IMG/VR virus record: IMGVR_UViG_3300030109_003951
Coordinates: 1-64,000 of that record
Strand: one strand, 5' to 3'
DNA length: 64,000 nt
Origin: a virus
Each line of letters opens with the position of its first letter. The stretch's first letter is position 1. The translations under genes and the position numbers were made by a program. Under the pieces are notes generated by a model. That model was not told where the DNA came from. It did not search any database and was given only the letters and a program-made list of their open reading frames with translations. Shown one piece after another: positions 2,332 to 22,262 of this stretch.

Positions 2332-2526
2332 ATGACAACAGAAAAGTGGTTCCAACAACTCAAAGCAACAGGGTCAGTTACCTCAAGCAGTGCTGCTGGT
2401 GGAGGCCCATCAAACTCAGCAACTACAGAAGGGATTTCTTTTATTGATTCACAAGGAAATCCTAGTCTAAGATTTGGCAAAAAGAAAAGGAGGAAAAAAC
2501 ATGGTAAAAACAAAGAAAGATGCTAA
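2332..2526 (+). CDS. Small Gly/Ser-rich protein with basic tail and variant leader (EKWFQQLK)
   Basis: ORF with AGGTGA SD. Confidence 0.6.
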   Translation: MTTEKWFQQLKATGSVTSSSAAGGGPSNSATTEGISFIDSQGNPSLRFGKKKRRKKHGKNKERC

Positions 2527-3589
2527 TGATGCCTTCAATAAATATGTAAGAGAACTTAAAGCGGCTGATAGTGCTACTATAGGTATGGCAAAAGGAAATC
2601 TTTATAGATTTTTAAGTGGACATGGCACTGCGAGTAGACCTGCTGCTAGAGGAGGCAAAAGAAAAGCCTCTGGGCTTTATAGGTTTTTTACTCAAATGCA
2701 AAATATTTTCAAAGGGGAAGCAGATTTAACTAATCAACAATTAAAATTAATTAGAGAAACGATTAGAAAATTAAAAGGTGTTGGGGATAATAGTATTAAT
2801 AATCCAAGAAATATACCTTTTACTTATCCTACTGGAGAAGATGGTAGTGGTCGAGCCATACAATATGGCCACCCTAATAGTAAAGAATATGTTCAAGGAA
2901 TGAAGAATAAAAAGAAGGCAAGGGGAGAAACTTATGAAGTTCAATCATACATGAATAACATTCCTGATGCTTGGACTAGTCAAACTTTAGGGACTGCTAG
3001 AAATCCTTTGTGGCAAGCATTTTTTGTTGGTGAGAATGAGTCTTTCAAGGGTAAAATCATTTCTATTGGTTTACTTCCGTTGTTAGAAAAAATAGAAAAA
3101 GGTTTGGCTGGAGAAAGTGTGGCGTTAACTATTCCTGCTAGAACATTACAAAAAGATTCTACGCTTGAGCAATTAGTAGATATTAAAGATGTTAGAAAGA
3201 GATTAAACGAAATCATGAGAACTAACAACCTATGGTCTAAAACTAAATCTACAGATAAAGAAGATAAGGAAATAAATGTTGTTAGAATCAAATTTACAGA
3301 CATGAATCGTAGACTAACAGGTTTACCATACAAAGTTACTCCAGAAGAACTCAACACTGTCAAAACATTATCGGGTAATAAAGATGCAGCAGGAGGGGTT
3401 AGTGAATTCAATTTACTTTCAATGACTGCTAATCAAATAGAGAAATTATTGCTTGCTGCTTTTGGAGCAGATGCAAAAGTTGGTGGGGTTCCAGTTCAAT
3501 GGTTTAACTTGTGGAAGACATCCCCAAGGATGGCAGAAACTAGAGATTTGCAAAAAATGCATTGGCGAGATTATTTACAGGTGAGGTGA
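2501..3589 (+). CDS. Basic hypothetical protein; ends in leader-like helix (KMHWRDYLQVR)
   Basis: ORF 2474..3589; likely ATG at 2501 after AGGAGG. Confidence 0.75.
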   Translation: MVKTKKDANDAFNKYVRELKAADSATIGMAKGNLYRFLSGHGTASRPAARGGKRKASGLYRFFTQMQNIFKGEADLTNQQLKLIRETIRKLKGVGDNSINNPRNIPFTYPTGEDGSGRAIQYGHPNSKEYVQGMKNKKKARGETYEVQSYMNNIPDAWTSQTLGTARNPLWQAFFVGENESFKGKIISIGLLPLLEKIEKGLAGESVALTIPARTLQKDSTLEQLVDIKDVRKRLNEIMRTNNLWSKTKSTDKEDKEINVVRIKFTDMNRRLTGLPYKVTPEELNTVKTLSGNKDAAGGVSEFNLLSMTANQIEKLLLAAFGADAKVGGVPVQWFNLWKTSPRMAETRDLQKMHWRDYLQVR

Positions 3590-4365: not shown

Positions 4366-4715
4366 GTTGGTTTGATGTTCTGAAAAAAAAGAAAGAAAGC
4401 CCAAGGCAGAAGGCTACAGAAAGAGCAAAAAAGAAAGGACTCAAAGGGGTAAATAAACCACAGGGATTAAAAAAAGACCCAGAAAAATCTCATCATGTTA
4501 TGGCTTTTGAAAATAATAAAGCAAAATATATGAAATTTGGCCAAAAAGGAGTAAAAACTAACCAAACTGCTGGACAAAGAGAGGCTTTCAAGGCTCGACA
4601 TGCTAAGAATATCAAGCGTGGAAAGATGTCTCGTGCTTATTGGGCGGATAAAGTAAAATGGAGTCCAAGTAAAACTAAAGAAAAGAAAAATAAAAATTGG
4701 AGAAAGGGTTCATAA
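4362..4715 (+). CDS. Highly basic protein with leader (MSWFDVLK), probably nucleic-acid binding
   Basis: KFGQKG...AFKARH...AYWA..VKW; very Lys/Arg-rich. Confidence 0.75.
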   Translation: MSWFDVLKKKKESPRQKATERAKKKGLKGVNKPQGLKKDPEKSHHVMAFENNKAKYMKFGQKGVKTNQTAGQREAFKARHAKNIKRGKMSRAYWADKVKWSPSKTKEKKNKNWRKGS

Positions 4716-5101
4716 TGTGGTTTGATTTGTTAAAAAGCATTAGTTATTCTGCTATTGTTCTTGATGACCCGTCCAAAAAAAAATTATTACCACTTGTTCC
4801 AAAGGGTTGGAAACCATACGCTCACCACATGACTATTAAACTCGGCCCATTAAAAGAAGATTCACAGTATAAAGTTGGTGATAAAGTATCAATGAATATT
4901 ACTGATGTTGGTATGGATGATAGAGCAATGGCTGTTAAAGTAGATGCTAAAAGAGATGACAGTAGAGGATTCCCTCATGTTACTGTTGCAACTAGTCCCG
5001 ATGGTGGAAAACCATTTCATTCTAATCAAATACCAGAAGAAAATTTTAAACCTTTTAGTGGCACCTTAACTGGGGTAGTAGAAGAAGTCCCCAACAGGTG
5101 A
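4715..5101 (+). CDS. 2H phosphoesterase (2',3'-cyclic phosphodiesterase-like) with leader (MWFDLLK)
   Basis: Two HxT motifs (HHMTI, PHVTV); ATG at 4715 overlaps the upstream TAA. Confidence 0.8.
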   Translation: MWFDLLKSISYSAIVLDDPSKKKLLPLVPKGWKPYAHHMTIKLGPLKEDSQYKVGDKVSMNITDVGMDDRAMAVKVDAKRDDSRGFPHVTVATSPDGGKPFHSNQIPEENFKPFSGTLTGVVEEVPNR

Positions 5102-5105
5102 TATT

Positions 5106-5609
5106 ATGAGTTGGATGGACATTCTTAAAGCAATTAACAAAATTGTTATTATTGATTTTGACCAAACACTATTTTATACTCCTACTCCAGAAGAAGGTAA
5201 AAAAAAATATCAAGAAGTTACTGGTGAGGAATATCCCCACATTGGTTGGTGGAGTAAACCAGAAAGTTTAGATACAGATATTTTTGATATTCCAGTCAAT
5301 AAAGAAATACTTAGCAAGTATAGAGAGTGTGAAAGTGATTCCACTTGCATGACCGTTTTGTGTACGGGTAGAGTTCCAAAAGTAGAAAAGGAAGTTAAGG
5401 CTTTATTTAAAGAACATGGCATTAATTTTGACAGAGAATATTTTGCTAAACTGCAAACCTTGAGACATAAATTAAAAACTTTTGAAGATTTATACCGAGA
5501 ATATCCAAACGCACAAATTACTGCTTATGATGATAGAGATGACCATTTACCCGAATTCCAAAAGTGGGCGGAAGATAAAGACAATGTAGACATTGTGCAT
5601 GTGAAGTGA
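5106..5609 (+). CDS. HAD-superfamily phosphatase (RNA-repair/PNKP-like) with leader (MSWMDILK)
   Basis: Motif I DFDQTLF, motif II CTGR, motif III K, motif IV YDDRDDH. Confidence 0.85.
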   Translation: MSWMDILKAINKIVIIDFDQTLFYTPTPEEGKKKYQEVTGEEYPHIGWWSKPESLDTDIFDIPVNKEILSKYRECESDSTCMTVLCTGRVPKVEKEVKALFKEHGINFDREYFAKLQTLRHKLKTFEDLYREYPNAQITAYDDRDDHLPEFQKWAEDKDNVDIVHVK

Positions 5610-5613
5610 TATT

Positions 5614-6855
5614 ATGAGTTGGATGGATATTCTCAAAGTTTCGTTAGATATTCTCACTGATGAGTTGCGTAGAGACATCAAATCAAAAGGTGGTAAAATT
5701 TACCAGATTGGTGGTGCAGTTCGAGATGAGTTTTTAGGTAAAGTGTCTAAAGATTTAGATTTGATAATTGCAGGAATAGACATTGACGATTTGCAAAAAA
5801 TTCTAAATCAACATGGTAAGGTAAATTTAGTCGGTAAAAGTTTTGGTGTGTTGAAGTTTAATCCTTTTGGTCAAGAAGGAGAACCAGTAGATATTGTTGT
5901 TCCTAGAATAGAAGTTAGCACAGGAGAAGGTCACAAAGATTTCGAGGTCAGATTAGGTAAAGACATCACGTTAGAAGAAGAACAGTTGCGTAGAGATTTT
6001 TGGATGAATGCAATCGCCAAAGATATTGAAACTGGAGAAATTATCGACATTGGTGGAAAAGGCCAACTCGATATAAAAAATAAACAGATTTCTGTAATCA
6101 ATCCAAAAGCATTTGAGGATGACCCGTTAAGAATGTTAAGAGCAGTACAATTCGCATCTAGATTTAATTTTAAAATAGAAAACGAAACCATGAAAGAAAT
6201 AAAGAAAAACGCTGCAAAAATTAAGACGGTTTCCAATGACAGGTATCAAGAAGAGTTTAGAAAAATGTTCGAGAAGTCTAGTAAGCCAACTGTAGGTGTT
6301 AAACTTTTGATAGAAACAGGGTTAATGAATCATATATTTAGTAAAGGGGAAGTTAATCCTTTGATGGATAAATTAAGTAAAGATGCCTTTCCAACTTTTT
6401 TAGCATTATTTGGTGAAGGGTCAAGTGGCTCAGAAATACAAAGTGTAATGAAGTTGTCTAACAAAGATGCCAACATCGTTCAAGCAGTTATGGATTTCCA
6501 AAAAATAAATTTAGATGATTTAAATGTGGTTAAATTTTTATCTAAAGTCAAGGATAAGAAAGATGTTATTCGCAATATTGATGCTTTGCAAAAAGCCAAA
6601 GGACAAACAACATTAAGTGAGCAATTAAAATCAATGAAAGGAAAACCAACAAGTCTCAAAGAATTAGCAGTTACAGGTAAGGATTTGTTAGATGAGGGAA
6701 TCAGTGGAAGAAAAATTGGTGAGATTTTGAATTATTTGTTAGAATTAGCAGTCAAAACTGGTAAAAATGATAAAGAGTTTTTACTTAGCAGGGCTAAGTC
6801 GGAGTTCAATGAAGAACTATGGAAAAGCATATTAAGGAGAAATACTCGTTGGTGA
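5614..6855 (+). CDS. cca: Class II (bacterial-type) tRNA nucleotidyltransferase / CCA-adding enzyme without HD domain, with leader (MSWMDILK)
   Basis: GGAVRD..DLD, RRDF..NA, EDDPLRMLRAVQFASRF, RxE flexible loop, C-terminal GKDL...GRKIG. Confidence 0.88.
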   Translation: MSWMDILKVSLDILTDELRRDIKSKGGKIYQIGGAVRDEFLGKVSKDLDLIIAGIDIDDLQKILNQHGKVNLVGKSFGVLKFNPFGQEGEPVDIVVPRIEVSTGEGHKDFEVRLGKDITLEEEQLRRDFWMNAIAKDIETGEIIDIGGKGQLDIKNKQISVINPKAFEDDPLRMLRAVQFASRFNFKIENETMKEIKKNAAKIKTVSNDRYQEEFRKMFEKSSKPTVGVKLLIETGLMNHIFSKGEVNPLMDKLSKDAFPTFLALFGEGSSGSEIQSVMKLSNKDANIVQAVMDFQKINLDDLNVVKFLSKVKDKKDVIRNIDALQKAKGQTTLSEQLKSMKGKPTSLKELAVTGKDLLDEGISGRKIGEILNYLLELAVKTGKNDKEFLLSRAKSEFNEELWKSILRRNTRW

Positions 6856-7517: not shown

Positions 7518-7741
7518 GTTGGAGAAGTCTGCTAAAGATTGCTATGGAAGGTTCTAGAAAAACCTTCGATAATTACGAAAGGGCTAAACGCCTTGCTCGT
7601 ACATGGTCTTTTGCAGAACCTCACGTTATCAGAGAAAAAAATGGTAAATTTACAGTCATGATGAAAAAAGACACTAAAGGTTTTCCAGAAGCAGATTTTG
7701 GCCCAGTTGTTCATGAACAAAAAGCGAGGTTTTCAAGATGA
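7514..7741 (+). CDS. Small protein with leader (MSWRSLLK, GTG start)
   Basis: ORF overlaps both neighbours. Confidence 0.65.
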   Translation: MSWRSLLKIAMEGSRKTFDNYERAKRLARTWSFAEPHVIREKNGKFTVMMKKDTKGFPEADFGPVVHEQKARFSR

Positions 7742-8946
7742 CATGGCAAGATATTCTCCTCAAACAAACTAAGTTTGAAGACGACATAGATGATTGGACA
7801 GAGGTTTTTGAATCTCAAAAAAATCTAACACAATTCAAGGAGAGTATCAATTCACTAGATGAAAGAACAATTGCTTCTGTTAAGAATACACTTAGGAACA
7901 AAGAATACGGCCAAAATATAGTAAATAATGCTGACCTAGATAATAAAAAAATTTTTGACCAACCAATACCAGAAAGACTATCTCAACAAAAAAGACTATC
8001 TAAACTAGTTCAAAGAGAACTAAATGAAATCAATGAACTCATACTTGATGCTGGTGGTTTAGATATTGATGATTTAATTGAAAGGATAGTTCCAAGATTA
8101 AAAGTTAGCGAGCCAGACTTTTTAAGTATAGAAAAAGAAATTAATAATTATTTGAAAGGTGGCACCAGAGTCACCCAAATAAGAGATAGGTTGTTCCCAA
8201 AACTTAGAGGTAAAGTTCAACAAATCAGTTCTAAGATAGAATCTTTCGCAGAACCAAATACTATCAAAAGACTTGCTACAATTTTTAAGATTACAAAGGG
8301 CAACCATATAATTAAAAGACCAGAATTAGAAAAGAAATTAGAATCTTTTTATGAAACAATAATACAAAAAGGCGACCCTAGAAAAATCCAAAAGTCATTA
8401 AAAGCAAAAACAGGAAATATTTACGACCATTTATATTTACCAAATAAATCACTTACACTAGAGTTTTCTAAAGCCCTAAAAAAAGAAAAGCCAACATTAG
8501 AAGGTTTTGAAGAATTCATGTATGTTAAAGTCCCTGCTAAATCTGTAAATGAAAACTTCTTTACAGATAAAATAAAAGATAAAAATGATTTGTATATTCC
8601 TTTTGAAGATGCACAAGAATTTTTAGATGATGAGGCACCAAATGGATTAGGTGGAGTTGTAGACAATATCGGTTCTGGGCAAAGAATAGTAGTTAATGGT
8701 AAGTCTATACTCACAGGTAATAAATTACCATTAGAGAAAAATAAAGTGCTGGACGATTTCAACAAAAAAGATAAAGACTTAAGTGAGAGTTTGAGATATT
8801 GGGCTTTTAGTAAAACATCTAAAGTTAAAGATTGGGAACAATTAGCATTTGACATTTTAAGTGAGTTCTTAAAAGACTTAAGAAAAAATAAAAATCTTTT
8901 AGGTGAACTCATAAAAATGGGAATAGTAGAGGAGGTTGAGTCATGA
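7738..8946 (+). CDS. Hypothetical helical protein with leader (MTWQDILLK)
   Basis: 402-aa ORF. Confidence 0.75.
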   Translation: MTWQDILLKQTKFEDDIDDWTEVFESQKNLTQFKESINSLDERTIASVKNTLRNKEYGQNIVNNADLDNKKIFDQPIPERLSQQKRLSKLVQRELNEINELILDAGGLDIDDLIERIVPRLKVSEPDFLSIEKEINNYLKGGTRVTQIRDRLFPKLRGKVQQISSKIESFAEPNTIKRLATIFKITKGNHIIKRPELEKKLESFYETIIQKGDPRKIQKSLKAKTGNIYDHLYLPNKSLTLEFSKALKKEKPTLEGFEEFMYVKVPAKSVNENFFTDKIKDKNDLYIPFEDAQEFLDDEAPNGLGGVVDNIGSGQRIVVNGKSILTGNKLPLEKNKVLDDFNKKDKDLSESLRYWAFSKTSKVKDWEQLAFDILSEFLKDLRKNKNLLGELIKMGIVEEVES

Positions 8947-12304: not shown

Positions 12305-13628
12305 GCAACCGATGAGTTCTGAAGAGTTACGACAAGGTGCTGTAGCGTTAGATGAACTTGCTAGTGCCACACAAGATTTTGAGGAGCAATATTTGAAATG
12401 GATTTCTTCTCAACCCCTTGATGATGAATACAATGTTATCAAAAATGCTGCTAAAGAATTCAATCTTAATTTATCTCAAGCAAGAGAACAAGTTGAAAAG
12501 TTTCCTTCTGAATATAAGATAGAAGGGGAAGGGATAGTTGATGTGGTAAAAAGATTGAGAGATTATAGAACTACACTTAAAGGTGACATTAAAAAAGATT
12601 TTACTAAATCTATTGTTAATGTTATTAATGGATATTCTTCACATTTAGACGATTGTATAAAATCTATTTATTGGTTGAGTGATTATCAAAAACCACTTAA
12701 GTCAATGTCTTTTAAAGAAAGCGATTTAAGAAAAATATACGAAATAAAAGATTATTCTACAAGAGCGCAACTAGTAGATATTTTATGTAAATATTGGGAA
12801 GCAGATTTAGAACGTAAAAGTTTACAAGGCACAGAATATTTCAAATCAGAACATTCACTAACCAAATGTAAAAAAGAATTTAGGGGTTTTATGAAATCAT
12901 TACCTAATAGGTATGATTGGACTGATAAATTGAATACCCACATTTTGAAATGTGTTTCTGATGACCAAGGAATTACTTGTAGGTCAATCATGGATAAGAT
13001 GGATTCGTCTTTACAAAAAAGGAGCAGCCCACAAATTATTGCAAAACATGCTAAGAAGATTGGCGTAACAATAGTTGAAGAACAATATTACAAATTAAAT
13101 GACACATTCAAAAAAGACATCAGTGCATATACTGCGGCTTTCATAGATTCAGATGGTTATATCACTTTAGATAAAAATCTAAATCCTAGAGTTGGTCTTA
13201 TTGCTACTGGTGATAGGGGCAAAGCATTCATGATAGAAATGCACAAAGCATTAGGTAATGGTAAATTACATCTTGACCAAAAGTCACCACAAAATACTAG
13301 AGCAGTAAACAGACTTAATTTTTATTCTCAAGATGATGTCCATAAAGTGTTAACTCAATGTCGCCCACATTTTAGAATGAAAGGGCCACAAGCAGATTTA
13401 TTATTAGAAATAGTTAGAATTAAAAAATATCATAAAAAACAAGATTGGGCTAAAGACCGTATGCAAGAAATATACAAATTAATGAAATGGTATAATCATT
13501 CAGATAACAAAAGTTATGATTGGTTAAAATATAATGTTGATATTTTTGCTATTGATAAATTAGAAGGTAATTGCAAAATGAATCTGATGGATGAATTAGA
13601 TTCAATTAGTAAAGGAGAGGAAGAATAA
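12225..13628 (+). CDS. Protein with long helical N-terminus and C-terminal LAGLIDADG domain
   Basis: AYTAAFIDSDGYI plus a typical LAGLIDADG beta/alpha tail (..RPHFRMK..QA.L); real start probably 12288 (TTG) or 12312. Confidence 0.75.
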   Translation: MILIYLILPSLHRWDKWEVVYLALISKQPMSSEELRQGAVALDELASATQDFEEQYLKWISSQPLDDEYNVIKNAAKEFNLNLSQAREQVEKFPSEYKIEGEGIVDVVKRLRDYRTTLKGDIKKDFTKSIVNVINGYSSHLDDCIKSIYWLSDYQKPLKSMSFKESDLRKIYEIKDYSTRAQLVDILCKYWEADLERKSLQGTEYFKSEHSLTKCKKEFRGFMKSLPNRYDWTDKLNTHILKCVSDDQGITCRSIMDKMDSSLQKRSSPQIIAKHAKKIGVTIVEEQYYKLNDTFKKDISAYTAAFIDSDGYITLDKNLNPRVGLIATGDRGKAFMIEMHKALGNGKLHLDQKSPQNTRAVNRLNFYSQDDVHKVLTQCRPHFRMKGPQADLLLEIVRIKKYHKKQDWAKDRMQEIYKLMKWYNHSDNKSYDWLKYNVDIFAIDKLEGNCKMNLMDELDSISKGEEE

Positions 13629-15229
13629 TGGCAGAAGGAAATATATTTAGTAGGTTGTTTAGAAAAAGAACACCTATACCGTCAGATAGAAAAGTTTTCA
13701 ATATTGGAATACAAGAAAGAGACAACTCTTTTTTCTTGTCTATACCATTATTGTATCATATTGCAAATTCTTCTGTAATTTGTAGAACTTGTACTACTCA
13801 ATTAAAAAATGAAGTATTTAGGAGAGGTTTTACTTTTGCTAAAAAATTCACTATGAAGTGTAGACAGTGTGATAAAGAATTTGAACAACAAGTAGGAGAA
13901 TGTGCTAAATGTGGTTCTATGGAGTTTGATGTTCCAGACGAAGAACAATTGAAATATGCTAAGAAATTGTTAACAGGTTATGTCAATGGTGCAAATCAAA
14001 TGTTTGTTGATGTGCTAAGAGAGTTAGAAGATGACTTAAATATCATAGATGATGCATATATTGTTTTAGTCAAAGAGTATTTTTGTGATGCTAAAGGAAA
14101 TATCAAACTACATAAGATAAAAGAAGTCTTTAGAGGCGACCCTGCATCTATGACTATCTATGCAGATGAAGTTGGTGAAAGAGGACAAAAAGGATTTATT
14201 GATATTCAAAATAGAGATTTTATTTCTGAAAATGCATATGATACTCATCCCGAATCTGGTAATGTTTTACAACCAGTGCATTACGTTAATAGGGCTACTG
14301 GGGAAGAAGAATATTTCATTGAAGGTGAGGTTTTACATTTTAGTAAATATGCCCCTTCGAGATTATATGGTTCAAGTCCAGTTATGACATTGTTTAGCCA
14401 TTTGACTACATTGATAGCAATGGAAAATTATGTCAACGCATCTTATACTAAATCTAGAATGCCTAGAGGTATTCTCGCAGTTCAAACTAGAAACATGGAT
14501 TCCATGAGGCAGTTTTGGAGAAGTGTCAAAGAAAAGATGGAAAGTGACCCACACTTTATCCCAGTCATGGGAATTGAAGCAGAAGGTAGAGGTGCTGTGG
14601 AATGGGTCAAATTTATGGACAGTCTAAAAGAAATGGATTATGTTGCAGTTAAAGAAGATTTAAGAGATAGGGTTGCTGCTTTCTATGGGGTTAGTAAAAT
14701 ATTCATGGCTGACAATACTGCTAGTGGTGGATTAAATAATGAAGGTATGCAAATTCTTGTTACTAATCGTGCAGTAGAAATGGCACAGAATGTTTACAAT
14801 CATTATGTGTTCCCTTGGTTAATGGAAGAGTTCGGGGTTACTGATTGGGAATTGGTGTTGCCACCGTCAGAAGAAGAAGATGAGATTGCCTCTTTAAGAA
14901 AAAGAGAAATTGAAATCGGTCTTGCTTCACAAATGCAAGGTTTAGGGTTTGAAGTTGATTTAGATGATGAGAACAATTTTGTTTACAGTAAACCTCCACC
15001 AGCACCAGAAATGAAGATGGAAGATGAGGTGATGTTAGGTGATACTGCTATGGGTGGGCCTCCTATGGAAGAAGTTCCTATGGAGGAACAAGTTGAAGAA
15101 GTTGAAGAAACTCCGACAGATACACCCGATGTCCGTATGAGCGTAGGGCCACCACAAAGATTCAGTGGTTTACCAGAAGAAGCAGCGAACAATAATGTCG
15201 ATAGAAGAACAGAGAGGCGAGTAGGATGA
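13628..15229 (+). CDS. Portal protein with zinc-ribbon insertion
   Basis: Position after TerL; EVLHF...LYGSSP, PRGIL, RVAAFYGV portal-like motifs; CRQC...CAKC. Confidence 0.85.
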   Translation: MAEGNIFSRLFRKRTPIPSDRKVFNIGIQERDNSFFLSIPLLYHIANSSVICRTCTTQLKNEVFRRGFTFAKKFTMKCRQCDKEFEQQVGECAKCGSMEFDVPDEEQLKYAKKLLTGYVNGANQMFVDVLRELEDDLNIIDDAYIVLVKEYFCDAKGNIKLHKIKEVFRGDPASMTIYADEVGERGQKGFIDIQNRDFISENAYDTHPESGNVLQPVHYVNRATGEEEYFIEGEVLHFSKYAPSRLYGSSPVMTLFSHLTTLIAMENYVNASYTKSRMPRGILAVQTRNMDSMRQFWRSVKEKMESDPHFIPVMGIEAEGRGAVEWVKFMDSLKEMDYVAVKEDLRDRVAAFYGVSKIFMADNTASGGLNNEGMQILVTNRAVEMAQNVYNHYVFPWLMEEFGVTDWELVLPPSEEEDEIASLRKREIEIGLASQMQGLGFEVDLDDENNFVYSKPPPAPEMKMEDEVMLGDTAMGGPPMEEVPMEEQVEEVEETPTDTPDVRMSVGPPQRFSGLPEEAANNNVDRRTERRVG

Positions 15230-16476: not shown

Positions 16477-16710
16477 ATGAGTGAAGAAAATGAAGTATTA
16501 GATATTTTAAAACAATTAGTTGATAGAATTAAAACATTAGAAAAACACGTTTACAATGAAGATAACGTGTTAATGAAATCTGGTTGGGTGCAAACAAAGT
16601 CACCTTCACCATCAGTAGATAATGATAGAACAGGAATGCCTAAGAATATTGGGGATAAATCTTGGGGCGAATTACATGATATAATTTCAAAAATGGAGGG
16701 TCGACAATGA
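16477..16710 (+). CDS. Mini scaffold-like protein (coiled coil plus KSWGELH C-terminal helix)
   Basis: C-terminus resembles the protease-scaffold C-terminus KMSWDELHQVI. Confidence 0.6.
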   Translation: MSEENEVLDILKQLVDRIKTLEKHVYNEDNVLMKSGWVQTKSPSPSVDNDRTGMPKNIGDKSWGELHDIISKMEGRQ

Positions 16711-17075: not shown

Positions 17076-19538
17076 GTGCCTCAATTACTTTTCCAAAAAG
17101 AAAGTGACCCTGCTAGACTAGTTCGCACTTTATTTGAAAAGGTCAGAATTGGTTACTTACTAGGAAAAGATGACCCTAAACATTATGCCGAGCGTTGGAC
17201 ATCTGTTATAGATGAACTAAAAGACTTACATGACGATACCAGCAATTTCGCAGCATTAATTAAAAGAACATTGAATGAAAAAGATTTGTTCTCAGACGAG
17301 GTTAAAAATCCAGAGTCACACGAAGCGGGTAGAATTTTTGCAGCAATTAAGAAACTGCGCTATTCTAAAATTACTAAAGACCCATTTATCGAAGAATTCG
17401 GGGAAGAAGTAGTTGATGCTCTTTTATCAGATGAACATGTTTATGTCAAATTTTTGCACTGGGCATTAAGAAACGATGATGATGTTTTAGAGTCAGAACT
17501 ATATGAGAATCAAGATTTAGACCCCGATGAAATCACTGGTGGTTTTGCAGGACTAGATTTAAAAGAAAAAGAAATCATTCCTTTTATCATAGAACATTAT
17601 GGTGACGATAAAGATTTATCAAGATTAGAATCTAAATATAAAGGGGCAATTAGTACTCTAAATAGAATTATAGACAATAAGGAACAAATGAAAAATCTAG
17701 TAGATTTAGATTTACAAAAAGCAGAAAAGTCATTATCTTTTATTGTTCCTAACAAACCAATGTATCGTATTTTTGATATTGAAGATTTAAAAGAATTAAG
17801 AGGTTTCACTGGTAAATGGGTAGTTCAAGAAAAGTATGATGGGATGAGAATACAAATCCACAAGTCAGAAGGTAAGGTCAAAATATATTCTTTTAATAAA
17901 AAAGACATCACAGATAAATGTCCAGAACAAGTTAAAATGATAAGTGAGAAAAAATTTGCAGATTGTATTTTAGATGCAGAATTGATGTTATTTGATGGTG
18001 ACGAACCATTACATCGAGCAGAAGTTGTTGCTAGAATTTTCAAAGATAAAAAATCAGATACAATTTTGAGAGCGCATGTATTTGACATCATGCAATATGA
18101 TGATAGAGATTTAACAGATTCACCATTAGAAGAAAGAATAAAAATATTATTCCAAAACTTTAGTCAACATTCAGATATTGAATTAGCATTCCCATCTAAA
18201 AAAGATACAAGGATTGCAGATTCAATGAAAGACATAGAAGTATATTCTAAAGAGATATTTAAAATTCCAACAGCAGAGGGTGTAGTGTTAAAAGATTTAA
18301 CCTCAACTTATTTCTTAGCCAATAGGAAAAATCCTAAATGGGTTAAATGGAAAAAGTTTGTCGACATTGATGTAGTAGTATTAGATATGAAGAAAACCAA
18401 ATCAGATTTATTTTCATATACTATTGGTGTGGGGCCAGTAGAAGAAGGTGTGGAAGTAAATGGTGTAAAATATCTAAGTGTTGGCAAAGCACTTAACACT
18501 AAAATTAGAGTAGACATTGGGGATATTATTAGAGTCAAGGTTGATGAAGTCAGACAAACACCAGATGGTTTTGCTTTACAATCTGCTAAAGTTATAGAAG
18601 TTCCCGAAGTTGAACAACCAGACAAAGTAGTAACTTTAGAATTTTTAGCAAAAGATACTAAAAAATCTTTGAACTATGATATTGAAGCATTTACTAAAGG
18701 ATATGAAATAACTGACCATGTTCATGGTCATGCTACCATTATTGCTAAATCAGATATGGATGGCTTTACAGTATATGGTTTTCAAGAAGATAACCTCATG
18801 GCTAAAAACGCTTTAGCAAATATGGAAGTTTGGAGAGAACAATTAGGTAAAGCACTTGATGAAGATAGGTCAGTTTTAGAAACAGCAATCATAAATGAAA
18901 TTAAAAGAACTAATAAACCTATGGATATTAATTCAATTGTAAGGTTTTTCAATAGAGATAAAGAACTAAAGAGAATATACGAAAGTGTATTCAACAGTAA
19001 TAAAAATGAATTGTTTAGAAGTCTTAAGAATAAATCAAAAGACCACCTCACATATGAAAAACAAAAATTTAATTTAAACATGGAAGTAGGAGAACCACTA
19101 AGAAAAGAATATTCTACTCCAGAAGAATATCGTAAAGGCACATTCAAAGTTTACATTACTGAAAATGAAAATATTCAAATTGTTATGGATTTAAATGATG
19201 AAAAGATTTCATGGATTATTAAGTTAGATAGTGAAGATGACATATTCAACTTATTCGGCAAATCTAAAAAATTTATGGCGCAAGTTGCAACAACAATGAC
19301 CAAAGGAAAGGTTATTGATTCTGGAGAAGTAGAATTAGGAGTTCAAAGACATGGTTATCATGAATACATGTTAAATGGAAATAAATTTGATACTCGTTTA
19401 CATTTCAGAGTTGTTCCTATTGATGATAAAGAGAACTGGGTAGCATTCACTAGTGTTAAACCAGAGAAGGTTGATTCTAATACTGATGATGGCATATGGG
19501 ATATACGGCAAGATAAGTATAATAAATTAACCCTTTAA
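17076..19538 (+). CDS. Multidomain ATP-dependent ligase in the head module
   Basis: Motif I EKYDG, III ILDAE, IIIa VFDIM, IV EGVVLK, V WVKWK, OB domain; about 220-aa N-terminal and 290-aa C-terminal extensions. Confidence 0.85.
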   Translation: MPQLLFQKESDPARLVRTLFEKVRIGYLLGKDDPKHYAERWTSVIDELKDLHDDTSNFAALIKRTLNEKDLFSDEVKNPESHEAGRIFAAIKKLRYSKITKDPFIEEFGEEVVDALLSDEHVYVKFLHWALRNDDDVLESELYENQDLDPDEITGGFAGLDLKEKEIIPFIIEHYGDDKDLSRLESKYKGAISTLNRIIDNKEQMKNLVDLDLQKAEKSLSFIVPNKPMYRIFDIEDLKELRGFTGKWVVQEKYDGMRIQIHKSEGKVKIYSFNKKDITDKCPEQVKMISEKKFADCILDAELMLFDGDEPLHRAEVVARIFKDKKSDTILRAHVFDIMQYDDRDLTDSPLEERIKILFQNFSQHSDIELAFPSKKDTRIADSMKDIEVYSKEIFKIPTAEGVVLKDLTSTYFLANRKNPKWVKWKKFVDIDVVVLDMKKTKSDLFSYTIGVGPVEEGVEVNGVKYLSVGKALNTKIRVDIGDIIRVKVDEVRQTPDGFALQSAKVIEVPEVEQPDKVVTLEFLAKDTKKSLNYDIEAFTKGYEITDHVHGHATIIAKSDMDGFTVYGFQEDNLMAKNALANMEVWREQLGKALDEDRSVLETAIINEIKRTNKPMDINSIVRFFNRDKELKRIYESVFNSNKNELFRSLKNKSKDHLTYEKQKFNLNMEVGEPLRKEYSTPEEYRKGTFKVYITENENIQIVMDLNDEKISWIIKLDSEDDIFNLFGKSKKFMAQVATTMTKGKVIDSGEVELGVQRHGYHEYMLNGNKFDTRLHFRVVPIDDKENWVAFTSVKPEKVDSNTDDGIWDIRQDKYNKLTL

Positions 19539-19575: not shown

Positions 19576-20823
19576 GTGTTAGGAGGAGTTGTAACAACAA
19601 AATCAAATACGTTTGATATACTGAAGTCACAAGATGATTTAATAATTGCAGGATATGCTTCAATAGAAATGGTAGACAAACAAAATGATTTAATTACACT
19701 CAAAGCGTTGGAGGAAGCAGTACAAAAATTCATGGATAAAAATGAATATAGAAACGTAATGACTAACCATTCAAATGTTCAAGTAGGAGAAGTAGTAAAT
19801 AAATATAGAGATTCAAAAGGACAGATATATAAAACACAAGTAGATGATGTAGGATTTTTTGTAGTAATAAAATTAAGGGATGATATAGAAAAAGCAAAGG
19901 AAGTATCAAGAGACATAAGGCAGGGAACATTAAGGAGTTTTAGTATCGGGGGACAAGCACTAGAAAAAAGAACTGTTAGAGATAAAGAAGTAGGGGAATA
20001 CAACGAAATCAGCAAATTAGAATTACATGAGGTTACAATCTGTGAAAAAGGAATAAATCCAGAAGCAAAATTCGATATACTGAAACAAGATAAAAATAAG
20101 GTGAAAAAAATGAATGAATTAGAAAAAGCACTTGGCGAATTAAATGAACTAGTTAAGAACATGAATTTGTCCAAGGAAGAAGAAGAAGAAAAAGGACATG
20201 GTAGAGACATGGAAATGGGTCACGAAGAAGGCCATGAAGAAGAAAAAATGGGCTATGGTCATGATGAAAAGGCTGATGAAGAAGATGATGTAGAAGACAT
20301 GTCTTACAAGGCTGATGAAGAAGATGACGAAAAGAAAGCAGAAAAAGATGAGGATGATGAAAAGAAAGCATTAGAACTCAACACTTATTCTGAGGCTGGA
20401 GAAGTTGTCTTTGAGAATGGTAGAACAAAAGACCATCCTCAAGAATCAGAATTTAAGATGCAACCTCCTACACTAGATTTGAGTGCTGCTAACTTAGAAA
20501 AAGCATATGAAGCATTTAGAGCAGAAAAATTAGAAGCAATGGCTTATGAGAATCTATCCAAAACATTTGGTGACAGATTTAACTCTGAATTAAAAGCACA
20601 AGATGAAGCAATTGCAAAAGCAAACTACAATGCTAAAGCAGAAGTAGCAGAACTAAGAGAGCAATTTGCATCATTGAAGAAATCATTAACAGAAGAAAAA
20701 CAACAAGTAATTGCAAAACAAGAACAAGTTGTAAGTAATTTAAATATTCCAAGTACTGACGATATTGTAAAAATGAGTTGGGATGAATTACATCAAGTAA
20801 TTGATAATTTGGAGAACAGGTGA
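19576..20823 (+). CDS. HK97-type prohead protease fused to acidic/coiled-coil scaffold
   Basis: IAGYAS..VDKQND, NH, SFSIGG, LHEVTIC...NPEA; immediately upstream of the capsid gene. Confidence 0.9.
   Translation: MLGGVVTTKSNTFDILKSQDDLIIAGYASIEMVDKQNDLITLKALEEAVQKFMDKNEYRNVMTNHSNVQVGEVVNKYRDSKGQIYKTQVDDVGFFVVIKLRDDIEKAKEVSRDIRQGTLRSFSIGGQALEKRTVRDKEVGEYNEISKLELHEVTICEKGINPEAKFDILKQDKNKVKKMNELEKALGELNELVKNMNLSKEEEEEKGHGRDMEMGHEEGHEEEKMGYGHDEKADEEDDVEDMSYKADEEDDEKKAEKDEDDEKKALELNTYSEAGEVVFENGRTKDHPQESEFKMQPPTLDLSAANLEKAYEAFRAEKLEAMAYENLSKTFGDRFNSELKAQDEAIAKANYNAKAEVAELREQFASLKKSLTEEKQQVIAKQEQVVSNLNIPSTDDIVKMSWDELHQVIDNLENR
20110..20823 (+). CDS. Putative nested scaffolding protein from an internal in-frame start
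   Basis: AGGTGA at 20099-20104 then in-frame ATG 20110 (MNELEKA), directly after the protease domain. Confidence 0.6.
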   Translation: MNELEKALGELNELVKNMNLSKEEEEEKGHGRDMEMGHEEGHEEEKMGYGHDEKADEEDDVEDMSYKADEEDDEKKAEKDEDDEKKALELNTYSEAGEVVFENGRTKDHPQESEFKMQPPTLDLSAANLEKAYEAFRAEKLEAMAYENLSKTFGDRFNSELKAQDEAIAKANYNAKAEVAELREQFASLKKSLTEEKQQVIAKQEQVVSNLNIPSTDDIVKMSWDELHQVIDNLENR

Positions 20824-20828
20824 TTAAA

Positions 20829-22262
20829 ATGGTAAGAACAATAAACACAATAAGAGATTTAGAAGCGGCTACATACGGCTTCCAAAACAACTCAATTCTA
20901 AAAGGTACTGGAGTAGTTGGTGCAGCAGGAATTGGTGTAACTGGACACGATGCAGCAATAGGAATAAATGGAACAGCAGCCACAGCAATGACTGATTTAT
21001 ACAATGTAGTATATGGTCAAAAAGTTTGGTCAATGTTGAACCAAGAAATAAATCCACTAGCAATTCTTCCAAAAAGACCGTACACAACAAGCGGTTGGAG
21101 AATTCTAAAAGCAAGACCATTTGGTGGAGCAGATGCGAAATTCGGTTTAGCACATGAATTTTCTGACAACTCTACTGGTGATGCTTTAACAGCAGGTAGA
21201 AGTGGAACACAAGTTGACAGGCCAATGCCAGATGAAATTGGTGGTGTTAGAGAAAATGCAGGAATAGGTGGAGCAGCAGCAGACGGTGATATTACACCAG
21301 TTGCACCAGAATACACAAAACTATTCATGACTCCTAAAACAATTGCTCACATGTTTGAATTCAGTGAATTAGCATCTGAAATGGCAAAGATTGATGATGG
21401 TATCGGTGACTTAAGAGCATTGATTCGTGAAGATATGGGTAAATTCCATGCAGAAGTTCAATCAAAAATGTTAGTAATGCCTCTAGAAGCATATGACTTA
21501 GATGCTGGATTAGCAGCAGGTAGTTCCGCTAGTGGTGCTGCTGCATTTGCAGATATGGAAAGAAACTTAACATCATTAATGAAAATTGTTTCTTCCTCAG
21601 CAGAAGTTCATGAAATGGGTGCGCAAAGTATAGTAGCAGCAAATGATGGTGCTAACAGTGTAGACACAGTTAAACTATATGGTAACACAGATAGAGCAGC
21701 AGACACAGCATTAGGTTCCTCAGTAGGATTTATGGATGCAGAAGTTAACATTGGAGATGGATATGCAGCAGCAGAACAAAGAGTATTAACACTTTCAATC
21801 ATGAATAGTTTAATCCAAAGTTTAAGAACAAATGGAGCAAGTCCAAAAGTTATTATGACTGGATATGATACAATTCAAGCAATTGCTGACTTATTACAAA
21901 GCCAAGAAAGATTCATGGATGCTAAACACATTGTACCAACACATAATGGTGTAAAAGGTGTTGCTGGTGCAGAAGTTGGATTCAGAGTTGCAACATACTA
22001 TGACATCCCACTAATTCCAGCAAAAGACATGCCAAGCACATGCCACTTATCATTATCAACAGGATTAAGTGATATGTTATTCTTAGACACTGACCACTTA
22101 TGGTACTCCGTACTAAAACCAACTCAATACTTTGAAGATGGTATTAATCATGGAAACCCATTCGGCATTGGTAAACTAGGGAATCAAGGAATGTACCGAA
22201 CTATTGGTGAAGTAGGCTGTTCTTTCTTCAAAGGACAAGGTAAAATCACCAACCTAAAGTAA
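20829..22262 (+). CDS. Major capsid protein (HK97 fold inferred)
   Basis: Follows protease-scaffold; about 477 aa; VYGQKVWSMLNQE and YYDIPLIP..D..FLDT segments typical of archaeal tailed-virus capsids; ATG 20829 after AGGTGA. Confidence 0.85.
   Translation: MVRTINTIRDLEAATYGFQNNSILKGTGVVGAAGIGVTGHDAAIGINGTAATAMTDLYNVVYGQKVWSMLNQEINPLAILPKRPYTTSGWRILKARPFGGADAKFGLAHEFSDNSTGDALTAGRSGTQVDRPMPDEIGGVRENAGIGGAAADGDITPVAPEYTKLFMTPKTIAHMFEFSELASEMAKIDDGIGDLRALIREDMGKFHAEVQSKMLVMPLEAYDLDAGLAAGSSASGAAAFADMERNLTSLMKIVSSSAEVHEMGAQSIVAANDGANSVDTVKLYGNTDRAADTALGSSVGFMDAEVNIGDGYAAAEQRVLTLSIMNSLIQSLRTNGASPKVIMTGYDTIQAIADLLQSQERFMDAKHIVPTHNGVKGVAGAEVGFRVATYYDIPLIPAKDMPSTCHLSLSTGLSDMLFLDTDHLWYSVLKPTQYFEDGINHGNPFGIGKLGNQGMYRTIGEVGCSFFKGQGKITNLK

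Follow-up and report, generated by a model that had tools for sequence, protein, structure and literature searches.

Do two identical pentapeptides at the ends of a viral protease mark the places where that protease cuts? The question is raised by a gene at 19576-20823, on the + strand of a 64,000-nucleotide (nt) stretch of IMG/VR record IMGVR_UViG_3300030109_003951. This stretch, referred to here as the window (the first 64 kb of an 86.6-kb contig; 34% G+C), has the gene content of a magrovirus, a virus of ocean archaea. Magroviruses are among the most abundant archaeal viruses of the surface ocean. To our knowledge none is in culture, so their assembly can be read from sequence only. The gene encodes a protease fused to a scaffold, with one FDILK pentapeptide near its N-terminus (the N-site) and another at the end of the protease domain (the C-site). 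The evidence assembled here points, somewhat better than evenly, to [IL]-L-K as a lysine-specific cleavage signal of this protease, carried on its own flanks, on the leader of the major capsid protein and on short N-terminal tags of other late proteins, a reading drawn from conservation and from analogy with known viruses.

The open reading frame encodes an HK97-type serine protease (family S78, assemblin fold) fused to a scaffold. Pfam Peptidase_S78 (PF04586) covers residues 19-177 (E=7.3e-11, 42.9 bits against a cut-off of 21), and the PHROG match is to a head maturation protease (E=6e-18). The top Foldseek matches are herpesvirus proteases, those of Epstein-Barr virus, human cytomegalovirus and Kaposi's sarcoma-associated herpesvirus (probability 1.0, E down to 2.5e-5); a sequence search of the PDB gave no match. 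The original prediction, an earlier reading of the window, had placed the catalytic serine in SFSIGG, which agrees with the Pfam assignment to S78 and with the alignments. H65 and S123, the second Ser of that motif, are invariant in two alignments of 96 and 67 homologues and line up with the 'FFNH' and 'GMSVG' catalytic motifs of HK97 gp4. Two AlphaFold models agree with each other; one covers the full protein and drew on 96 sequences, the other covers residues 1-205 and drew on 67. In both, residues 1-19 are disordered (predicted local distance difference test, pLDDT, ~40), a compact beta-rich domain runs from a strand at 23-30 to a strand at 165-170 (pLDDT >90), and confidence falls directly past residue 170. 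Further on, a helix is modelled at 173-204, followed by a disordered acidic linker at 207-290 and long helices at 304-414. The parts of the gene on which the argument turns are as follows.

19576-20823, + strand: protease-scaffold fusion gene, 415 amino acids, comprising leader, S78 protease, acidic linker, coiled-coil scaffold and C-terminal tail (open reading frame, Pfam, PHROG, AlphaFold2 models, Foldseek).
19576-19626, + strand: N-terminal leader, residues 1-17, ending in the N-site FDILK (19612-19626), with a predicted cut at K17/S18 (pLDDT <50 in both models; conservation).
19627-20085, + strand: S78 catalytic domain, residues 18-170, with His65 at 19768-19770 and Ser123 at 19942-19944 (both invariant).
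20071-20085, + strand: C-site FDILK, residues 166-170, the last beta-strand of the protease, with a predicted release cut at K170/Q171 (both models; conservation).
20194-20445, + strand: disordered acidic linker, residues 207-290 (pLDDT <50; 29% identity among homologues).

Translation confirms the observation from which the question arose, FDILK followed by S at 19612-19626 (residues 13-17) and by Q at 20071-20085 (residues 166-170). The two copies had been described as bracketing the protease domain. This holds for the first, which precedes the domain within the flexible leader, but not for the second, which does not lie just after the domain and instead forms its last beta-strand. The identity of the two pentapeptides, taken alone, is weak evidence and only mildly unusual. 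A repeated pentapeptide of some kind is found in 15% of shuffles of the whole protein, which is rich in Glu, Asp and Lys, and in 2.6% of shuffles of residues 1-200. At the DNA level the copies are alike in 13 of 15 bases, with two synonymous differences and no longer repeat, and the match of only 14 nt sits among many similar short repeats. Since repeated pentapeptides are not rare in shuffled sequence, the case for cleavage rests on the context of the two sites and not on their identity.

Conservation provides the first such context. K17 and K170 are both fully conserved (100%) in 113 homologues, with hydrophobic residues at P2 and P3, and both lysines are still at least 90% conserved in the alignment of 67 homologues, which spans 31-99% identity. 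Loss of the FDILK sites from homologous proteases had been named in advance as the outcome that would count against the prediction; both flanking motifs, and the corresponding motif of the capsid protein, prove to be conserved. Relative to the window protein, leader residues 1-12 share 36% identity across the 113 homologues and motif residues 13-17 share 81%. The N-site is thus a conserved island within a disordered, otherwise variable leader, and because it is disordered yet conserved it fits a linear processing motif. In a sister magrovirus lineage (74 loci) the N-site reads I[ST]LLK[AGS]G and the C-site F[RSK]ILK[EQ]; the pentapeptide identity is therefore confined to one lineage, and [IL]-L-K at both positions is not. 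Further afield, nearly all members of the 'AGYA' subfamily of S78 proteases carry h-x-h-(x)-K (h, hydrophobic) 5-12 residues ahead of the first strand. In the 'GGPA' subfamily just 4 of 52 members have an N-site-type motif; because that subfamily does without it, the N-site is not part of the core structure.

The C-site turned out not to be special to this virus: it lies within the fold and is an S78 family-wide feature. The pattern F-x-h-h-K recurs in almost all of 150 representatives drawn from 1,425 distant relatives. What varies is the lysine, and it varies with what follows. A P1 of K or R is seen in 121 of the 135 representatives whose chain runs on for more than 12 residues past the C-site; among the 14 exceptions, 9 place a K at the next position. 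Where the protease domain ends the protein, K is present in only one of eight, and that one is apparently a truncated copy of a longer kind. The association between the C-site Lys and a downstream polypeptide is strong (Fisher p=4e-6; 6e-7 without the truncated-looking protein), to be read with the caveat that the representatives are not phylogenetically independent. The S78 proteases that end their polypeptide and have no C-site Lys are P0150, P0237, P0201, P0213, P0268, P0174 and P0183, and several of these seven form the C-terminal part of polyproteins of 550-940 amino acids. The last strand is retained in the Lys-less proteins (FDVLY, FKVLV, FEILQ). Because the strand is kept while the lysine is lost, the C-site Lys is not needed for fold or catalysis; it behaves like a release site, seemingly present only when there is something to release. 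The polyproteins with a C-terminal protease retain the N-site Lys, as expected if it is needed to excise the enzyme from the part upstream. As to the setting of the distant relatives, no viral loci were found for P0133 and only two distant ones for P0148. The protease of the halovirus HVTV-1 has PVFK/S and FGVVSK/A at the two positions, with a different capsid leader, and is too distant to be informative.

The junction between protease and scaffold, where the conserved lysine is tied to the downstream polypeptide, carries a second signal.

20100-20112, + strand: internal GGTGA, 5 nt, then the ATG of Met179, 9 codons past K170, probably opening a nested scaffold-only gene at 20110-20823 (Met179-Arg415) (sequence; conserved Shine-Dalgarno element).

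In 153 related loci an ATG lies 3-15 codons past the C-site Lys, preceded in 126 of them by a Shine-Dalgarno-like element, the kind of element found before 11% of internal in-frame ATGs and before 60% of called gene starts in the window. The GGTGA-type signal is the same as that before many genes of this virus, the capsid gene included (AGGTGA, 5 nt, ATG at 20829). The bases preceding the called protease start, GTG 19576, show no GGTGA- or GGAGG-type element when read by eye. Met179 is, from these sequence features, the probable start of a nested scaffold-only product, whose translation is predicted. Such an in-frame internal start is a mark of nested protease-scaffold gene pairs of the herpesvirus UL26/UL26.5 and lambda C/Nu3 type.

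A comparable lysine closes the leader of the capsid protein encoded next to the protease.

20829-22262, + strand: major capsid protein, with a leader of residues 1-25 ending in NSILK (20889-20903) and a predicted cut at K25/G26 (Pfam SU10_MCP; PHROG major head protein).

The original prediction had seen NSILK followed by G about 25 residues into this protein, and the motif does occupy residues 21-25 (20889-20903) if translation starts at ATG 20829. That start is more likely than GTG 20820, judging from the AGGTGA 5 nt upstream, which overlaps the protease stop codon, and from homologues that start at the equivalent Met. In the capsid protein, [IL]LK comes after a variable linker in every homologue of two lineages (74 of 74 and 67 of 67), across 29-97% identity. 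An internal conserved GWR[IV]LK (21093-21110, capsid residues 89-94) is tag-like, but its lysine is freely replaced (K/Q/T/S), and the element is probably structural and not a cut site.

The third place where the motif recurs is at the very start of other late proteins.

21-31695, + strand: about 19 late genes whose products start M-[ST]-W-x-[DE]-I-L-K (pattern matches), with Trp codons at 27, 333, 655, 954, 1616, 1867, 3600, 3985, 4368, 4718, 5112, 5620, 7520, 7744, 15232, 15833, 16192, 22981 and 30919.

Matches to W..[ILVM][ILVM]K in all six frames of the window fall at the starts of open reading frames in 17 of 18 cases. The tags make use of all six Leu and all three Ile codons, so selection acts on the tag peptide. 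A DNA-level repeat or regulatory element, considered as a separate explanation for the FDILK copies, is ruled out by the synonymously varying tag codons and the 14-nt match. The motif had been said to be shared between the protease flanks and the tags. A profile built from positions P5-P1 of 16 tags, with Trp left out, was scanned over 78 genes (20,978 residues), and the two FDILK sites came out as its best non-tag matches (14.6, against 12.0 for the next), which supports that claim. Across the 78 genes the ILK tripeptide as such is found 27 times, where 8.7 would be expected. No mention of the tags or of the flanking sites was found in the accessible magrovirus literature, including the original description (PMC5434244). 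Some tags are degenerate: MTWKQVLQ (1610-1864) has no Lys, MTWQDILLK (7738-8946) has an extra Leu and MSEENEVLDILKQ (16477-16710) has no Trp. Others start at non-ATG codons (putatively ATC 3594, and GTG 7514, GTG 15818, TTG 22975).

The first half of the tag has a counterpart at the far end of the fusion protein.

20758-20820, + strand: scaffold C-terminal tail, DDIVK and then the last 16 residues, MSWDELHQVIDNLENR (resembles the tag start M-S-W-x-[DE]-h).

Homologues end in AEMDWADIHKMVGG, in AEMSWSDIHKAVGG or in PST.DM..MSW[DE]EVH.LA, and the tails of distant representatives contain YKMSWDEVH, AKMSWQELE, SKMTWQEVE and HKMSWSEVE; M[SD]Wx[DE][IVL] thus lies inside the last ~20 residues of the scaffold in close and distant homologues alike. 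In the 86.6-kb genome the scaffold tail is the only internal M[STD]W on the + strand. The C-terminal 25 residues of the herpesvirus UL26 and UL26.5 proteins are a shell-binding element (PMC12474303). Because the scaffold C-terminus binds the shell in other viruses and the tail matches the tag start, the tag is best read, by analogy, as a copy of a scaffold docking peptide followed by a cut site. A 371-residue protein (2474-3589) ends in LQKMHWRDYLQVR (LQK/MHWRDYLQVR, 3550-3589), so that this protein and the scaffold both carry C-terminal copies of the aromatic half of the tag, with a Lys before each.

The cut sites once proposed within the scaffold did not hold up. Only 20-22% of homologues retain the lysines K245, K381 and K399; K184, K200 and K348 are well kept, yet lie in helices, where h-x-K is commonplace. 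With three of the six sites poorly conserved and the others helical, the 'hydrophobic-x-K' scaffold sites are not supported, and hydrophobic-x-K is too loose as a recognition rule. The earlier picture of a protease that frees itself, trims the capsid protein, removes the tags and degrades the scaffold is accordingly kept in part: the motifs of flanks, capsid and tags are conserved or matching and the C-site Lys is release-like, but its scaffold sites find no support.

The mechanism that these observations suggest would use [IL]-L-K, in most cases preceded at a distance of 4-5 positions by an aromatic residue, as a signal read by the enzyme inside the procapsid at four kinds of place. A cut after K17 would remove the variable disordered leader. 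A cut after K170, at the end of the last beta-strand, would free the 153-residue enzyme from the scaffold, in the manner of the herpesvirus R site. A third would follow K25 of the capsid protein, and the fourth kind would follow the final Lys of M-S-W-x-D-I-L-K, the 8-residue tag borne by about 19 late proteins. Since the aromatic part of the tag copies the scaffold C-terminal tail, MSWx[DE]h is probably the part by which scaffold and cargo dock on the inner shell; the Lys would allow the protease to detach them. HK97 gp5, the capsid protein, is cut after K103 (TFNK/S), as the original prediction had it (PMC10275583). From this K103/S104 cut and the conservation patterns we infer the specificity for lysine; each cleavage event described here, like the packaging of the tagged proteins, is put forward as a prediction.

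Several observations weigh against this proposal. The tags have their aromatic residue at P6, whereas the protease sites have it at P5. Other ILK tripeptides lie inside folded proteins, so the sequence alone cannot define a cut site. In both models, positions P5-P1 of the C-site make up a confidently predicted beta-strand of the domain, so that recognition in an extended groove would require the strand to peel off, or would rest mainly on P1 and the prime side. The family-wide F-x-h-h-K implies that conservation of the C-site is partly structural, and it may be an accident of the lineage that the two pentapeptides are identical. The N-site Lys is kept even with only 6-10 residues upstream, and so does not serve just to excise an upstream domain. 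Because L-K never varies between lineages, there is no covariation of tag and site to compare.

Some of these points lend weight to a different account, in which both FDILK copies would be uncut structural or regulatory elements of S78 proteases: the C-site a last strand, the N-site a conserved peptide that binds the enzyme, for instance as a pseudo-substrate, or else the shell, and the resemblance to the tags a shared liking for amphipathic h-h-K. The confident strand at the C-site, the occurrence of F-x-h-h-K in S78 proteases of very different viruses and the retention of the N-site Lys whatever the upstream length all fit it. It is harder to reconcile with the loss of the C-site Lys in every lineage with a terminal protease though the strand is kept, with an N-site that both models leave disordered and a whole subfamily lacks, or with the probable nested scaffold start immediately past the C-site; this account is therefore considered unlikely, though it deserves serious weight. 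Chance is a far poorer explanation. A pentapeptide repeat could arise by accident in a protein rich in Lys, Asp and Glu, as the whole-protein shuffles and the short DNA match among many of its kind allow, but both sites are kept in hundreds of homologues of two lineages, which contradicts chance, and they are the top two non-tag matches of the tag profile; coincidence is very hard to credit.

A further alternative would grant the motifs a shared function and deny the cut. ILK-type motifs would then be docking signals only, with tags, flanks and capsid leader binding one procapsid receptor and staying in place while maturation cuts are made at other sites. The likeness of the tag to the scaffold tail, a shell-binding element in other viruses (PMC12474303), speaks for this idea, and the scaffold tail of this lineage lacks the final Lys. 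Yet at every class of site no position varies less than the Lys, the type enzyme of S78 does cut after Lys (PMC10275583), and docking leaves unexplained why the C-site Lys disappears when nothing lies downstream. Docking without cleavage is accordingly held to be improbable. Lys-specific cleavage at [IL]-L-K, with MSWx[DE]h as a probable docking element beside it, is the reading carried forward here.

The genome around the protease is that expected of a magrovirus. A late arm on the + strand carries terminase, portal, ATP-dependent ligase, protease, capsid protein and tail genes, and a replication arm on the - strand carries a family B polymerase with clamp-loader and ligase genes. The protease gene lies in the head module between the portal gene and the capsid gene (20829-22262), a placement in keeping with its assignment to S78. 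Marine metagenomes contain thousands of homologues of the protease, on contigs of ~85-107 kb, and the nearest cultured relatives are haloarchaeal siphoviruses, at ~31% identity. The pattern of relatives agrees with the original magrovirus description (PMC5434244). Three consecutive tagged genes at 4697-6855 of the window encode RNA-repair-type enzymes. The features concerned are these.

13628-15229, + strand: portal gene.
17076-19538, + strand: ATP-dependent ligase, in the head module.
Within 4697-6855, + strand: tRNA-ligase-type cyclic phosphodiesterase, tagged (PF08302).
Within 4697-6855, + strand: HAD phosphatase of the 'Swiss Army Knife' RNA repair family, tagged (PF10307).
Within 4697-6855, + strand: nucleotidyltransferase of the CCA-adding/poly(A) polymerase type, tagged (PF01743).

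Together with the ATP-dependent ligase, the three tagged enzymes could constitute a tRNA repair kit delivered by the virion.

The wider scheme into which all of this might be drawn is a single Lys-ending code that organises magrovirus head maturation. MSWx[DE]h, on scaffold tail and tags, would dock; [IL]-L-K, on the protease ends, capsid leader and tags, would be cut. A built-in self-release Lys closing the last strand would be a general property of S78 proteases, lost when nothing is fused downstream, and cargo that includes the RNA-repair kit (cyclic phosphodiesterase, HAD phosphatase and CCA-adding enzyme) would be delivered with the genome. The scheme as a whole is tentative, and should be regarded as possible rather than probable. 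If true, the self-release Lys would be a simple, family-wide cleavage rule for S78. The absence of the C-site Lys from terminal proteases is a general clue to the self-release of this very large family of enzymes from fused scaffolds and polyproteins. The cut-site rule predicts mature ends (protease S18-K170, capsid protein G26) and the set of proteins likely to be carried in the particle.

Four known systems help to place this design. HK97 gp4 resembles the magrovirus enzyme in its Pfam family and its catalytic His and Ser, and gp4 itself (L081 3348-4025) has IAAMK/S exactly at the position of the magrovirus FDILK/Q. This is the same P1-P1' pair as in the known gp5 cut, and it suggests IAAMK/S as a predicted self-release site in the type enzyme. 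HK97 differs in that the delta domain of its capsid protein serves as scaffold, in place of a protease fusion, and no cargo tags are known for it. One kind of polyvalent protein always ends in an assemblin-like peptidase, and the S78 domain is expected to process the polyprotein in virion assembly (Iyer et al., 2017; PMC5512222). Relatives of that kind are among the homologues found here (P0201, P0213, P0268); in these the protease comes last and has no C-site Lys, whereas magrovirus cargo is encoded by separate tagged genes.

The likeness to herpesviruses is one of architecture. The protease fold is the same, the protease lies N-terminal to a fused scaffold, and a probable scaffold-only gene is nested within the fusion. 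In UL26/UL26.5, cleavage behind residue 247 (the R site) yields the protease and a scaffold nearly identical to the nested product, and the M site follows residue 610 (PMC12474303). The predicted self-cut of the magrovirus protein at the protease/scaffold boundary would resemble the R site, and the Lys just before its C-terminal tail the M site. In contrast to herpesviruses, the magrovirus has a predicted P1 Lys in place of Ala, a catalytic domain of only ~153 residues, an extra predicted N-terminal cut, a motif found also on many separate cargo proteins, and an archaeal host.

Phage T4 provides the parallel for the tags. Its capsid targeting sequence (CTS), an N-terminal peptide of ~10 residues on IPI-III and Alt, targets unrelated proteins into the prohead and is removed at L/I-x-E; its protease gp21 is processed C-terminally and has its own motif (LIE-9) near the N-terminus, so that the motif lies near both ends (PMC9026906). 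The magrovirus likewise has a short N-terminal peptide, common to unrelated proteins and ending in a protease motif, on about 19 genes. T4 differs in its protease family (S77), in cutting after Glu, in its separate scaffold gp22 and in having only a handful of tagged proteins; the magrovirus enzyme belongs to S78 and has a predicted cut after Lys, a fused scaffold and a tag, on ~19 genes, that copies the scaffold tail. If this tag works like the T4 CTS, it would offer a route for loading foreign proteins into the capsid of an archaeal virus. The magrovirus design thus appears to combine the herpesvirus principle of fusion, nested scaffold and self-release with the T4 principle of a targeting peptide removed at a protease motif; it departs from these systems in the S78 family, the predicted P1 Lys, the host domain, the number of tagged genes and a tag that copies the scaffold tail.

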